Below are positions 58,851-64,000 of a stretch of DNA of 64,000 nucleotides, in pieces (the first letter of the stretch is position 1; each line of letters begins with the position of its first letter). Under the pieces are notes generated by a model, which saw only the letters and a program-made list of their open reading frames with translations, did not search any database and had not been told where the DNA came from. The stretch is from the IMG/VR virus record IMGVR_UViG_3300027987_000368, positions 1 to 64,000 of that record, one strand, 5' to 3'. Source of the DNA: a virus. Made by a program: the position numbers and the translations under genes.

Positions 58851-61151
58851 TCAGGTCGTGGTGGCAGGCTTGCCGTAGACGGTGGTGGTGTCGATCTTCG
58901 GAACGATGATCGACACCGCGGAACCGTCCCTGCTCGACTTGCGAGCGGTTGCATGGCGTTTGGTCGCGGCGTATGCGTGATTCACGAACGCGTCGAACGT
59001 CGGAGCCGGCTTCTCCGGGTCGGGTCCTATCGCACTGTCGAGGTCCACCTTAGCGGCCGGGTCGAGGTCGAGGATCGCGGCGACGCGCATCGAGGTCATC
59101 GAGTCGGGTCGCTTGCCGTCCGACCACGTGGACACGAGCTGCGGACACAGCGGGGCGATCTCTCGCTCGAGCTCACGCATGTCGGCTTCTGCCTTGTCGG
59201 CCTCCAGCTTGTTGACGGTACGCGTAAGTGCGGAGAGCTCTCCCTGCGCGGCCGCGAGGTCGGTCGTCAGCTTGGCGGAGTCGCCGTGCACCTTGGCCTG
59301 CGACGCTCGGATGCGGGCAGCGGCGTCCTTGCTGACGCGCAGCTTGACGCCGTCCAACTCCATCATCTCGCCGCCGCCCAAGGCCTGCTTGACCATCTCG
59401 GGGTCGAGCTCGAGCGCGGCGGCAATCGCCTGCATCGCACCGTCTGCGGCCTCGGGGCTATCCGCGTAGGCGTATGCCTTGATCGCGTCGAGCAACGCCA
59501 TCGCGGCCTCGGGGTCCATCTGATCTTTCTTCGGCTTCGTCATGTCGTGTTCCTTGCTGGCCTCAAAAACGAAAACGGTCGCGCCGTCGATCAGCACTCG
59601 AGCCTTCGAGCCCGCACGTGCCTCATCAACGAGAGATTGATGGTTCACCTCGATGTCGGTCTGCCGATACGTGTACCGAACCCCCTGCGCATCGATGCCT
59701 GGGTCTCGCACCGCGAGCGTGGTGTAGCCGGTCGACAGCTGCACCTTGCCGTCACGCATCTTGCGGATCGTCGAGATGTCGCCGACGCAGATCTTGACCT
59801 TGACGAAGCGTAGGCCGTGCTCGTCAGCGGGTTCCAGCGTCGCCCCCGTGCCGAGCATGCCCCTGGCGTACTCGCGCCAGTTGTCGGCCGTCACGAGGAC
59901 TGGCGGATGGTCGTCGGTGAACGTGGCGAAGTCGAAGCTCTTGAGGCTCTTCTCGACTTCGTCCTCGCTCCGGTACTCGTACCAGGTGCTCTTGCCGTCG
60001 CCGTAGAGCTGGGAGCCCGTGCGCGCGGCGTAGCCCGTGACGATCAGCCGGCCGTCGGTTGTGACCTTGTCGGCGAACCCGTCGGCGCGCAGCCGCTCCG
60101 CGATCGAGTTGACCTGCGCAGCATCGGTCTTCGGGCCGAGCTCGTCAGCGATGGCGAGCGCGCGGTCAACCGCCACGCGGTCTTCGGCACCGAGCGCGAA
60201 GTCCATCGTGCAGGTGCGGAAGACCCGGTCGGTCGAGTCGGCCTGCACGGTTGCGTTCGCCACGGTAGTCAGCAGCGCCAGAGCGCCCGCGAGCGCCTTG
60301 TCGGTCCAGCCTCGGGCGGCACGCTTGATCGGCGGCAAGGCCATAACTCCGCGCAGCGCCTGGGTGACGCTGTCAGCGGTCGGCAGCTCGGAATCGTCGG
60401 TCGCATCGGTCCAGTGCCCCCAGTCCCGAAGCGACGCGTCGCGCTCGCTCGGACCTTCGCGGCCCTCGATCACAATCGGTTCCCCCTGCTCGACCTCGGA
60501 CATGCGCTTGACAAACGCGATAGCCTTGACCGCGTCGTCGTAGTCGCCCTCGGTCCAGTCGGACATGGGCTTTTCTTTGAGCGCGATCACCCGGCGCAAC
60601 GCATCTCGGGCGCTCTCTCGAGCGGCGCCTTCTTTGCGGTTCTCCCCCGCATATGGGCTCGCTGCCCAGTCGCGCATCTGCGAGGGCGTCATAGTGATCA
60701 GCCGCGGAAACTCTTCTCGGATCTGCGCCTGCTCATCTTCGCTGCGCGCGACATCGCCGTGAATGTCATGGTTGGCGCGCAGCTTCTCGAGCATTCCCTG
60801 GAGCGTGGTCTTGGCCTCGGCTCGGACTGCGTCCGACAGACCCTCGGTCTGCGACAGCCGGGCGAGCGCGTTGCGGATCGCGTTGCCGATGCCGACGAGC
60901 TCGCCGTCCTCGACGTACGCGATTGGCAGCTTGAAGCTCGCGCGCGTGATATTCTCGCCCGTAGGTGGATTCAGATCGGCAACGACGAAGCCCCTGGAGG
61001 CCTTGGCCCAGTCGACCTCGTCATCGTCCCCCGTAGCCCAGTCGAAGATTTCGCGCTGGCCACGAGCCCCGTCCCACTCGCCCTCGCGCAAGGTCATCGT
61101 GGCGTCAACCGTGACGGCGAATGCGTCTAGGCGTGCGGCGTGCCCGGTCAT
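58851..61151 (-). CDS. DUF2213 prohead protease/scaffold with N-terminal extra domains including a DUF3140-like one
   Basis: ARTGSQLY, TDDHP, QLSTGY, NHQSLVDEARAG. Confidence 0.85.
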   Translation of the reverse strand: MTGHAARLDAFAVTVDATMTLREGEWDGARGQREIFDWATGDDDEVDWAKASRGFVVADLNPPTGENITRASFKLPIAYVEDGELVGIGNAIRNALARLSQTEGLSDAVRAEAKTTLQGMLEKLRANHDIHGDVARSEDEQAQIREEFPRLITMTPSQMRDWAASPYAGENRKEGAARESARDALRRVIALKEKPMSDWTEGDYDDAVKAIAFVKRMSEVEQGEPIVIEGREGPSERDASLRDWGHWTDATDDSELPTADSVTQALRGVMALPPIKRAARGWTDKALAGALALLTTVANATVQADSTDRVFRTCTMDFALGAEDRVAVDRALAIADELGPKTDAAQVNSIAERLRADGFADKVTTDGRLIVTGYAARTGSQLYGDGKSTWYEYRSEDEVEKSLKSFDFATFTDDHPPVLVTADNWREYARGMLGTGATLEPADEHGLRFVKVKICVGDISTIRKMRDGKVQLSTGYTTLAVRDPGIDAQGVRYTYRQTDIEVNHQSLVDEARAGSKARVLIDGATVFVFEASKEHDMTKPKKDQMDPEAAMALLDAIKAYAYADSPEAADGAMQAIAAALELDPEMVKQALGGGEMMELDGVKLRVSKDAAARIRASQAKVHGDSAKLTTDLAAAQGELSALTRTVNKLEADKAEADMRELEREIAPLCPQLVSTWSDGKRPDSMTSMRVAAILDLDPAAKVDLDSAIGPDPEKPAPTFDAFVNHAYAATKRHATARKSSRDGSAVSIIVPKIDTTTVYGKPATTT

Positions 61152-61357: not shown

Positions 61358-62026
61358 CTACATTGCGATCGGGACATACAGACCGATGGGCGATCCCTCG
61401 ACGAGATCCTGCAATCGAATCGATGCGCGCGCGCTCAGCTTCTCCACGCGGGCGACGAACACGTGGCCGAAGGTCGTGACTGTGACCAGACCGCGAGCTG
61501 CCACGCTCGCCATTCGCGACTCAACCTGCGCGCGCGCGTCGTCATCGCTCGAGGCCCGGACCCACGTCACGAGTTCATCGGACGCGCGCACGGGCGTGAC
61601 CGAGGGCGACCCGAGCACACCAACCCCGGAGACATCGACGCCCGCCAGATCGACCGTCACGGGGATCGCGGATCCCCGGACGCGAAGTCGCAGCGCGGTG
61701 TCGCCTGCGCTCGGCCAGACAGCGACAAGCCGCCGGCTCTCCGCCGGGATCTGGTCGAGCACCCGGCGAGCTGCGAACGGATCGCGGACCCCGACGCCGT
61801 CGACCTCGAACACTAGATCGAACAGCGGTGGCCCATCGAGCACGAGGTCGGCATGCGCCGATCCGGTGGCTCGAGACCACCGCCCGATCAACGTCGCGGA
61901 CGGCTGCTTCACGCCGGCCTCGACTTTCCAGATATGGCCGCGCCCGACCCCGACGCGCGCGGAGAGCTCGACCTGCGTCAGCCCGGCGCGGACCCGCTCG
62001 CGTCGAAGTCGGGATCCGAGGGTCAC
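61358..62026 (-). CDS. XRE-family HTH protein
   Basis: LGSRLRRERVRAGLTQVELSARVGVGRGHIWKVEAG..QPS. Confidence 0.8.
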   Translation of the reverse strand: MTLGSRLRRERVRAGLTQVELSARVGVGRGHIWKVEAGVKQPSATLIGRWSRATGSAHADLVLDGPPLFDLVFEVDGVGVRDPFAARRVLDQIPAESRRLVAVWPSAGDTALRLRVRGSAIPVTVDLAGVDVSGVGVLGSPSVTPVRASDELVTWVRASSDDDARAQVESRMASVAARGLVTVTTFGHVFVARVEKLSARASIRLQDLVEGSPIGLYVPIAM

Positions 62027-62397
62027 CGCGCCCCCACCACAACACCGCGCGCGAGCAAGAGCGGCCGCACTTCGTTCCAGACTTTCGCGTGCCCCTTGGC
62101 CATCGTCGCCTGGCCCTTCGACAGCTCCACGTGCGGCTCTGTCAGCACGATGATGCGTTCGCACGGCACGCCATCGGCGTTGGACTTGAGCCACTTTCGC
62201 AGGGCCCGCACGACCGCCACACCTTCGATCACCCACGGTCCGGGGCGCGCGAACCAGTCCATCGCCACGTGCTCGCTCACGCCCGACCAGTCGAATAGCT
62301 CGATCAGGTCGTCGGTGTGCAGCACGTTCGACATCGTGTTCGCCAGCGTCGTCTTGCCCGTGCGCGGGCCGCCGATGATGCAGATTCGCTCGGTCAT
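62023..62397 (-). CDS. Small P-loop kinase-like protein
   Basis: ICIIGGPRTGKTT, HTDD, WVIEG. Confidence 0.75.
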   Translation of the reverse strand: MTERICIIGGPRTGKTTLANTMSNVLHTDDLIELFDWSGVSEHVAMDWFARPGPWVIEGVAVVRALRKWLKSNADGVPCERIIVLTEPHVELSKGQATMAKGHAKVWNEVRPLLLARGVVVGAR

Positions 62398-62639
62398 CGC
62401 TCGCCACGCTTCTGCCGAGAACCTCGGTCCCGATCGTAGCTTGAGATCTTCTCGATGGATGCAACCGGGGCAAAGTCTTCGCATCCAGCGGGCGAATCGG
62501 CCGTCCATCGCCGATTCACAACGACCAGACTTCGATGCTTCGCGCCCTCTCCCACCACGAGACAATCCATGCGCGGCTCTTCCAGCCCGAACGCACACTC
62601 AGAGCACTTCACCGCGCCAGCGGGCTTCTTGTGGGTCAT
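62394..62639 (-). CDS. Small Cys-rich protein
   Basis: CSEC...C...CEDF; stop overlaps the kinase ATG. Confidence 0.5.
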   Translation of the reverse strand: MTHKKPAGAVKCSECAFGLEEPRMDCLVVGEGAKHRSLVVVNRRWTADSPAGCEDFAPVASIEKISSYDRDRGSRQKRGER

Positions 62640-62677: not shown

Positions 62678-64000
62678 TCACCGCTCGCCCCGAATATTCA
62701 GCTGCATGTGCTCGACGCCGACCTGCGCAGCCCGGGGCGCCAACTCGACGCCGCGGCTCACGGCCGACTTGAGCTCGCGGATGTTTCCCGGCCACGGGTA
62801 GACCAGCATCGTTGCGATCGCGGTCTCGGTGAACGCCGGGTCCGCGGACTCGTAGCCGCGCGCGCTCGTGTAGTCCGCGTAGATCCCTTGGGCGATCGTC
62901 ACGATGTCGGACTCGCGATCGCGCAGCGGGGGGATCTCGATCTCCACCTCCGCCAGCCGATAGAACAGATCAGGCCGCAGCACCCACTCGTCGCGGGCGT
63001 TGAGCGAGGTCGCCGACACGAGCCGGGCTTCGTGCGGCGCGGCCAGCACCCGCAGCAACGCGGACTGGACCTCGCGCGGCATGTCGCCGACCTCGTCCAA
63101 GAACAGGGTCCCGCCAGCAGCCGAGGCCAGGCCCTTCCGCAGCTGCTTCGCCGCGGCTGCGGGGTCGTCGGCGAGCTCGGCGCTGTTGATCGCCACGAAC
63201 GGGCCGTCGCCGACGTGGAGCCCCCTGGCGATCCCCTCTTTGCCCGTGCCGGTCTCACCGAGCAGCAGCACCGCGAGACCGCTGTCGCGGACGCGCTCGA
63301 GCACCGCGAAGATCTCCCGCATTGCGTCGGACTCGCCCCACACGTCGCCGAACTTCGTGGACTCGGACAGGCCGAGGTCGTCGAGGCGCTCGTCGGCGGC
63401 CTGCTCGAGCTGGGCCTGGGTCTTGCCCATGAGCGCCTCGGTCACCTGGGACAAGTAGAACTTCCAGCGGCCGGCGATCACGTGCCCGCGGACCTTGCCG
63501 GCCTTCGCCATCTTGATCAGCGTGCTCGACGAGACATTGAACGGCCGGCTTGCCTGCGCCGCGCTGATCATGTCCTCGCCCTCGGGGTTGTCGAGGCCGG
63601 ACGCCGTCGCCGCCTCGCGTGCTTGCTGTTCGCGCGTTTCCTTCGCTTCATAGTAGGCGTCGATGTCCGGGTAGTCCTCGCGCAGAGTTGGGTCACCCAG
63701 GATCACGTCGAGAGGCACGCCTGTTTTCACAGCATCCGCCGCGCGGGCATCGGCGTTGGCCTTCCGCTGCAGGGCTTTGTCCTTGCCGTTCGCCTCCTGA
63801 ATATCGCCCATGGTGACGATGAACTGCGTCGGCACGATGAGGCTCTCGCCAGCCAGCTTCGCCTTGTAGACCTGAGCGGCGAGCGAGATCTCGCTCCCGC
63901 GGGTGATCGCCGGCACGACCATCTGCTCCGCCCACCCGGCGACGAGATCGTAATAGGCGTCCATCGGCGCCGAGTTGTCGCCGAGGTTGCCTTCGGCCTC
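62678..64000 (-). CDS. Partial (5' end beyond the window): DUF1073-like portal C-terminus + excisionase-type HTH + sigma-54 activator-type AAA+ domain
   Basis: Frame open to 64000; GNLGDNSAPMDAYYDLV; HTH; VLLLGETGTGKE, GGTLFLDEVGDMP..VQ..LLRVL, RPDLFYRL, PPLRDR, YPWPGNIREL. Confidence 0.8.
   Translation of the reverse strand, partial: EAEGNLGDNSAPMDAYYDLVAGWAEQMVVPAITRGSEISLAAQVYKAKLAGESLIVPTQFIVTMGDIQEANGKDKALQRKANADARAADAVKTGVPLDVILGDPTLREDYPDIDAYYEAKETREQQAREAATASGLDNPEGEDMISAAQASRPFNVSSSTLIKMAKAGKVRGHVIAGRWKFYLSQVTEALMGKTQAQLEQAADERLDDLGLSESTKFGDVWGESDAMREIFAVLERVRDSGLAVLLLGETGTGKEGIARGLHVGDGPFVAINSAELADDPAAAAKQLRKGLASAAGGTLFLDEVGDMPREVQSALLRVLAAPHEARLVSATSLNARDEWVLRPDLFYRLAEVEIEIPPLRDRESDIVTIAQGIYADYTSARGYESADPAFTETAIATMLVYPWPGNIRELKSAVSRGVELAPRAAQVGVEHMQLNIRGER

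Follow-up and report, generated by a model that had tools for sequence, protein, structure and literature searches.

What does a structural ring of a phage head do with an ATPase descended from a bacterial transcription activator? The question is raised by an open reading frame (ORF) in the IMG/VR virus record IMGVR_UViG_3300027987_000368, an 80,843-bp sequence of which bases 1 to 64,000 (the window) were analyzed. An earlier note, made from the letters of the window alone, had described a single frame at 62678..64000 on the minus strand, running from the window edge through a DUF1073 portal, an excisionase-like helix-turn-helix (HTH) domain, and an AAA+ ATPase of the type found in bacterial enhancer-binding proteins (bEBPs). 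The frame does cross the window edge, and in the full record it becomes a 778-amino-acid ORF at 62678..65014, with residues 339-778 in the window. We are highly confident that this is a single working portal protein and not a misassembly, one in which the portal fold and a helix continue into a winged HTH and a bEBP-derived AAA+ domain. It is the genome's only portal and its only Sigma54_activat domain, and a six-frame search of the record found no second portal (no PF04860 or PF05133 elsewhere).

The gene has the marks of an ordinary member of the head operon. Its ATG overlaps the stop codon of the large terminase subunit (TerL) gene (ATGA), which lies directly upstream on the same strand; a GGAGG stands 5 nt before the start, and the GC content at third codon positions (GC3) is uniform at 0.88 throughout, which is typical for real genes of this record. 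It is vanishingly improbable that an error of sequencing or assembly has merged two genes, one for the portal and one for the AAA+ domain, or that the AAA+ part is host contamination. The fusion was found in 14 viral contigs and in about 46 protein clusters from several databases, with a single open frame over both halves in all 12 of the distinct, independent loci checked, so that the possibility of separate genes raised in the earlier note found no example among the relatives examined. An independent mangrove-metagenome contig joins the crown, the HTH, and the start of the AAA+ domain without gaps, and the two halves co-diverge, with pairwise identities of portal and AAA+ half that correlate at r = 0.94.

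The portal assignment of the N-terminal part was borne out by sequence and by structure. Phage_portal_3/DUF1073 (PF06381) matches residues 74-375 with 75.7 bits against a cut-off of 33.8 (E = 3.5e-21; 78.3 bits in the six-frame search), and the PHROGs match is to phrog_146, portal (1e-27). An AlphaFold2 model of the 778-residue protein (mean predicted local distance difference test score [pLDDT] of 76.7, about 90 in the AAA+ region) was matched by Foldseek to solved portals with a probability of 1.00, best to Pam3 (8hds_A, 435 columns) and also to E217 (8fvh_O), Pa193 (9b41_A), and T1 (9l01_M), in alignments covering 390-453 columns. As modeled, the portal part is a complete fold with clip, stem, wing, and crown. 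Pfam, PHROGs, and Foldseek place the core at residues ~50-450 (63665..64867, minus strand, as are all features below unless stated), of which the window holds the C-terminal wing and crown part (63665..64000). The crown is followed by a long helix (residues 451-472), a candidate barrel helix by analogy with solved portals, and a flexible linker to residue 483 (63566..63664 together) in which pLDDT falls below 50 at residues 471-474. This helix and linker form the least conserved segment of the protein, with a mean pairwise identity of 0.38. At the opposite end, the portal begins with a Ser/Lys/Arg-rich basic tail of ~45 residues (64868-65014) that is variable in length and missing in divergent relatives; the first 93 residues of the Pa193 portal are likewise unseen.

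The HTH, which the earlier note had placed at about 63430-63570, maps to 63425..63565 (residues 484-530) and is probably a winged HTH of the HTH_17/excisionase/BldC/MerR type according to Pfam, PHROGs, and the fold model. HTH_17 (PF12728, residues 484-526) scores 13.7 bits in this protein, below the cut-off of 27, but is above threshold in a relative (P0127; 32.7 bits, 9e-8) and has precomputed matches in at least 10 family members, and the PHROGs match is to phrog_66, excisionase. Folded alone, the domain comes nearest to BldC, RdfS, Pukovnik Xis, and MerR-type domains, with template modeling (TM) scores of 0.75-0.80 and Foldseek E values of only 0.04-0.2, a weakness to be expected for a domain of 55 residues. 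G506, G510, R516, and a "GRWKF" motif are invariant. HTHs of the BldC/excisionase type form cooperative head-to-tail multimers on DNA. A conserved "EDMxSAA" motif was considered as a protease site and rejected, since these residues make up the initial strand and helix of the HTH domain. The linker between HTH and AAA+ domain (63350..63424, residues 531-555) is variable in the family alignment and tolerates large insertions, since one relative (P0035; L018 6432-6905) carries a helical insert of ~70-100 residues there. In a sediment metatranscriptome (run X13), a contig of 160 nt is 96% identical to the region of this linker (63346-63505), which weakly suggests natural transcription of a close relative, with DNA carry-over also possible; each of the matching sequencing runs holds a small share, 0.10 or less.

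The AAA+ core occupies residues 556-697 (62924..63349), where Sigma54_activat (PF00158) matches residues 559-692 with 73.4 bits (2.3e-20) and PF14532 matches end to end. It is followed by the AAA+ lid (residues 698-778, 62681..62923; AAA_lid_14, PF25601, at residues 698-776 with 42.1 bits, 8e-11) and the stop codon at 62678..62680. Sequence matches in PDB are to FlrA, NtrC1, FleQ, and PspF at ~1e-29 with 30-35% identity, and in Foldseek the AlphaFold2 model also matches PspF, NtrC1, and FleQ at a TM score of ~0.75. The motifs that had been read as intact are indeed present and invariant across an alignment of 24 family members: Walker A GETGTGKE (residues 586-593, 63236..63259; G586, E587, G589, G591, and K592), Walker B LFLDE (residues 637-641, 63092..63106; L639, D640, and E641), the arginine-finger motif RPDLFYRL (residues 680-687, 62954..62977; R680, D682, L683, and R686), and sensor II WPGNIREL (residues 741-748, 62771..62794; W741, G743, N744, R746, E747, and L748). 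Also invariant are the glutamate-switch Asn610, R664, A668, T669, and PPLRxR (PPLRDR here). With all catalytic and inter-subunit motifs kept, the ATPase should, on its sequence, hydrolyze ATP as an oligomer.

What the domain has lost is the surface with which bEBPs engage sigma-54. Aligned by HMMER to NtrC1 and FlrA, the protein has a gap of 12-14 residues falling exactly at ELFGxxKGAFTGA, the L1 loop, at residues 611-633 (63116..63184, "...SAELADDPAAAAKQLRKGLASAA"), and a second gap of 12 residues at the pre-sensor-I (L2) hairpin, at residues 655-664 (63023..63052, "RVLAAPHEAR"). Both losses had been suspected from the letters alone. Across the family, a GAFTGA-like motif occurs in 0 of 44 fused members versus 168 of 189 cellular relatives, the Walker A-to-B spacing is 51 versus 68, and the spacing from Walker B to the arginine finger is 43 versus 58. 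A divergent subclade (P0037-P0040, P0038, P0267) keeps an insert of L2 length and half of L1, which shows descent from a normal bEBP and stepwise loop loss. The C-terminal Fis-type HTH of bEBPs (HTH_8, PF02954) gave no match in the protein, which ends with the lid, and against the named bEBP orthologue groups of NCBIfam (NtrC, PspF, PrsR, NifA, and others) the best score was 135.8 bits versus a cut-off of 502.6. Judged by its residues, the module cannot be a sigma-54 activator, because the defining features of one (GAFTGA/L1, L2, and HTH_8) are absent. The L1 stub is conserved across the family in neither sequence nor charge, so the ring would have no substitute pore loop, and we therefore read the AAA+ domain as a putative ATP-dependent assembly switch and not as a translocase. 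The suggestion that a structural gene carries a co-opted activator ATPase thus held, in the genome's sole portal and with the sigma-54 contact loops lost.

The fusion is a stable property of a whole family and not of one genome. A search with the C-terminal part recovered about 38 clusters of 730-830 amino acids in which PF06381 and PF00158 occur together, down to 39% identity, and every match to the portal part searched alone also carried the AAA+ module, down to 32% identity; in an exhaustive profile-free search more fusions rank first, with ordinary bEBPs from about 1e-46. A quick IQ-TREE phylogeny placed the fused AAA+ modules in one clade (SH-aLRT 99) apart from 109 cellular bEBPs, the only member outside it (P0144) being a truncated gene call, and by this tree the fused modules have a single origin. 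No part of the protein evolves more slowly than the AAA+ core, whose mean pairwise identity is 0.63 where that of the portal core is 0.47. Of 276 pairs, 94% show stronger conservation in the AAA+ module than in the portal half. Ratios of nonsynonymous to synonymous substitution rates (dN/dS) of 0.19-0.28 in the AAA+ core, 0.19-0.27 in the portal core, and 0.29-0.62 in the HTH indicate that the module is under purifying selection.

Family searches found no free-standing homologue of the module. Three short AAA+-only proteins (P0144, P0122, and P0015) that might have been such homologues were rejected as truncated or frameshifted gene calls, and one candidate relative (L019) proved to be an ordinary PAS-AAA+-Fis bEBP with GAFTGS. 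A nested start in this genome that could yield a free HTH-AAA+ product (GAGG-N8-ATG at "NPEGEDM") was likewise rejected as a family feature, the aligned codon being CTG in L007 and CTC in L012-L018. In search of prophage copies and a host, 185,579 species genomes were scanned with a pattern; ordinary bEBPs dominated the outcome, and none of the best 80 loci covers the portal part. The ESM Atlas returned only generic bEBP clusters.

Loss of the sigma-54 interface does not by itself end the usefulness of a bEBP. VpsR of Vibrio cholerae (PDB 7V2B), which is among the sequence matches of the module (3.6e-18), and TyrR have bEBP-type AAA+ domains that are unable to engage sigma-54 and are still functional DNA-binding proteins; GAFTGA-less relatives such as VpsR act as sigma-54-independent DNA-binding regulators (PMC6158489). 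Both are free cellular factors with the order regulatory domain, AAA+, HTH, whereas the module described here has both loops cut out and is attached to a portal. More generally, the module shares with bEBPs (NtrC1 1NY6, PspF 2C96, FleQ 5EXP, FlrA, and ZraR) Walker A and B, the switch Asn, RxDLxxRL, PPLRxR, WPGNxREL, and the lid, and differs from them in lacking L1, L2, HTH_8, and a receiver, GAF, or PAS domain, in having HTH_17 upstream, and in its fusion to a virion structural protein.

On this precedent the fusion might act, as monomer or ring, in the cytoplasm of the infected cell before it is incorporated into procapsids, with capsid assembly then titrating it away. It could repress or activate transcription through its HTH independently of sigma-54, or it could enter host bEBPs as a GAFTGA-less, dominant-negative subunit and stop sigma-54-dependent responses. 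The GAFTGA-less relatives VpsR (PMC6158489) and TyrR are ordinary sigma-70-type regulators, the oligomerization motifs are intact, the AAA+ module is 35-40% identical to many cellular bEBPs, and an XRE-type HTH regulator is conserved alongside in the late operon. We nevertheless regard such a role as unlikely. It leaves the obligate, clade-wide covalent fusion to a portal without a reason; the start that overlaps the TerL stop within the late structural block implies late production of the protein; among cellular proteins, the nearest AAA+ relatives are spread over many phyla, with no host-like partner; and a conserved HTH would be superfluous for a pure poison. The sigma-54 promoter consensus TGGCAC-N5-TTGCW does not occur within the 64-kb window. 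No sigma-54 gene was found in the phage genome, and a look for operator-like repeats near the head module gave nothing convincing.

The position of the module can be judged from related portals. The closest solved portals, gp19 of E217 and Pa193 (PDB 8fvh and 9b41), share its fold and family and are of similar length (765 amino acids, compared with 778 here). In both, the C-terminal barrel projects into the head and residues 529-765 (~237) are without density (PMC10329688, PMC11456595), such that the resolved part ends in a head-pointing helix or barrel that is followed by ~240-300 more residues, as in the protein described here. In E217 the barrel touches packaged DNA and unfolds as the DNA leaves (PMC10329688). 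Since the C-terminal barrel of these homologous portals points into the head, the HTH-AAA+ module probably lies in the capsid lumen, in twelve copies per dodecamer and virion, and twelve tethered copies would suit two hexamers.

If rings form at all, their first service could be to the portal itself. ATP-driven hexamerization of the AAA+ domains (2 x 6) might gather the subunits and nucleate or proofread the dodecamer and the initiation of the procapsid, with the HTH in a secondary role. The trans-acting arginine finger and the motifs of an oligomerization-dependent ATPase are intact, the tether is obligate and the module co-diverges with the portal, and twelve is twice six. The related portals of E217, Pa193, and Pam3, however, assemble without such a module, the HTH is under purifying selection that would be left unexplained, and bEBP rings can be hexamers or heptamers. 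We consider this quite improbable, more so than a cytoplasmic regulator, and each of these two ideas explains fewer of the features.

We hypothesize instead that the module is a prepackaged, portal-anchored, ATP-switched DNA-binding factor that is delivered with the phage genome or acts on it, a reading to which we assign a probability of roughly 0.4 and which combines two precedents, the GAFTGA-less DNA-binding regulators such as VpsR and the portal-fused cargo that has been proposed to be injected. As an anchor, the portal would place a fixed dose of 12 copies in every capsid, beside the end of the DNA that is first to exit. Release would take place at the flexible linker behind the barrel, presumably through the neighboring head-maturation protease, and the module would enter the cell along with the genome. 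There, with ATP present, the AAA+ assembly switch may organize the HTH domains on the phage DNA, where they could serve as a sigma-54-independent early regulator or as a genome-protecting pilot factor ahead of phage gene expression. The linker is a possible cleavage site in that it is part of the least conserved, lowest-confidence segment and a protease gene lies downstream.

Cargo at the C terminus of portals is a known theme. For PBECR, 2H, and InPase domains fused to portals, packaging and injection have been proposed (Iyer et al. 2017, PMC5512222), and in these fusions (portal-PBECR, portal-2H, and the portal-InPase BcepF1.124 of a Burkholderia phage) a C-terminal nonstructural domain is likewise found among virion genes. 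The cargo list of that study is without AAA+, NtrC, or sigma-54 (PMC5512222), whereas the cargo here is an HTH and a bEBP-derived AAA+ domain. Proteins that are packed in the head, enter with the genome, and act before phage expression are also known as a concept, in the virion RNA polymerases (vRNAPs) of N4-like phages (DEV, PMC11445570) and jumbo phages (PMC7824862) and in T4 Alt; these are separate gene products without relation to the module in sequence or fold, and for the portal module delivery would be by inference only. We found no description of a portal-HTH-bEBP arrangement in the literature or in a cultured-phage collection. The claim of the earlier note that no example had been described therefore stands for the combination of domains, with the qualification that C-terminal cargo on portals as such has been described before.

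Several observations weigh against delivery. No cleavage motif was found in the protein; a folded AAA+ domain would have to unfold in order to traverse the tail channel; target DNA sites were not identified; and no cultured member is at hand, since the cultured-phage collection holds no fusion and its only matches are bEBP genes in misfiled bacterial contigs. Moreover, typical portal or MuF cargo swaps between relatives, whereas the HTH-AAA+ module was never seen to be swapped and is more conserved than the portal that carries it. It is invariant in a clade where identity has dropped to 31-44% in portal, TerL, and capsid protein, and in this it resembles a core component of mechanics or assembly more than an effector in an arms race.

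These last features would be better accommodated if the modules stayed on the portal and, depending on ATP, formed a ring or a pair of rings that share the axis of the channel at the barrel's inner mouth, as an internal clamp on DNA. While ATP still reaches the procapsid, the HTHs could grip the entering DNA, as an anchor for the leading end, an antislip valve, or a headful or retention device, and hold the terminal segment until ejection; the loss of L1 and L2 would clear the central face of the ring for DNA. An HTH of a type that binds DNA cooperatively would suit this task, and the portal gene carries the module as a constant component, its slowest to evolve, which co-diverges with it across the clade as befits a core machine more than a swappable effector. 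The tether is covalent in all relatives, with no conserved internal start and no free-standing homologue, and the barrel position is already one that interacts with DNA in E217 (PMC10329688). On the other side, rings of bEBP-type AAA+ domains are not known as DNA clamps or translocases, the unconserved L1 stub leaves no obvious pore residue to contact DNA, and the L2 hairpin is kept in the divergent subclade, so that a cleared pore is not universal. A sealed virion is without ATP, and the packing of sixfold rings on a twelvefold portal is only presumed. We see the tethered clamp as possible and second to the delivered factor, and it is rather doubtful that twelve modules form a working, ATP-driven assembly of two hexamers inside the procapsid that grips or gates DNA at the inner mouth of the channel.

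Whichever role the module plays, its genomic setting is that of a head operon. Downstream of the fusion and on the same strand follow a P-loop ORF, an XRE-type HTH gene, a 63-amino-acid ORF, a DUF2213 protease, a cement protein, and the major capsid protein, and the order TerL, fusion, (XRE), protease, cement, and capsid protein is conserved among related loci. The DUF2213 gene that the earlier note had placed downstream of the portal lies at 58851..61151, separated from it by two or three small genes; it encodes a head-maturation protease or scaffold-like protein of 766 amino acids (DUF2213 at residues 363-519; PF09979, 1e-29; phrog_530, 2.9e-44) and is syntenic in related loci. This protein has an N-terminal extension of ~300 amino acids with DUF3140 that is missing in distant relatives, whose matches begin at about residue 300-350. 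Between portal and protease, the XRE-type HTH gene (61358..62071, ~237 amino acids; HTH_3/HTH_31; phrog_2328 and others) has tblastn matches to residues ~134-370 in seven loci (L003-L005, L007, L011, L012, and L017). Most of the clade retains it at this interval, an odd site for a regulator, with identities as low as 30-36% (L012 and L017), and its C-terminal part of ~170 amino acids is without family assignment. Its product could be a partner of the portal module. The P-loop NTPase ORF (62023..62598; Walker A GGPRTGKTT) has no family match, is present only in the closest relatives (L003 and L007), and overlaps an Arg-rich stretch by which the XRE frame is spuriously extended.

On the other side of the fusion, the TerL ORF as called (65011-67080, 689 amino acids) is overextended: relatives show homology from about residue 154-188 onward, and the ~150 residues at its start, rich in Ser, Pro, and Thr, are probably noncoding. 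About 4 kb past the terminase, in a region of lower GC3, lies a classical AAA ATPase of 367 amino acids (PF00004, 1.7e-11; 68918-70021, corresponding to L002 7918-9021). The record both starts (1-170) and ends (80677-80843, L002 19677-19843) within one (CGCCAT)n hexamer tract, such that its "direct terminal repeat" is a simple tandem repeat of uncertain tract length. Such an arrangement fits a circle closed through the repeat and offers no evidence for a physical terminal repeat.

Portals are usually viewed as passive rings for which an outside terminase supplies the energy. The lineage described here keeps an intact-looking ATPase and a DNA-binding domain on the presumed interior end of its portal, and over long evolutionary time both have been conserved more tightly than the portal core. 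Should the module travel with the DNA, it would represent a new dosing route for an early regulator, at exactly 12 copies per virion and without a separate packaging signal, and a natural case of a bEBP motor repurposed after losing its sigma-54 interface. If it remains tethered, the machine for packaging and ejection would have a second ATPase, inside the capsid and derived from a transcription activator by loop excision, and the view of that machine would change. Under either outcome, the loop-less bEBP core may offer a minimal system for the action of an AAA+ ring without its grip on sigma-54, and the portal fusion a possible route for loading proteins into capsids.

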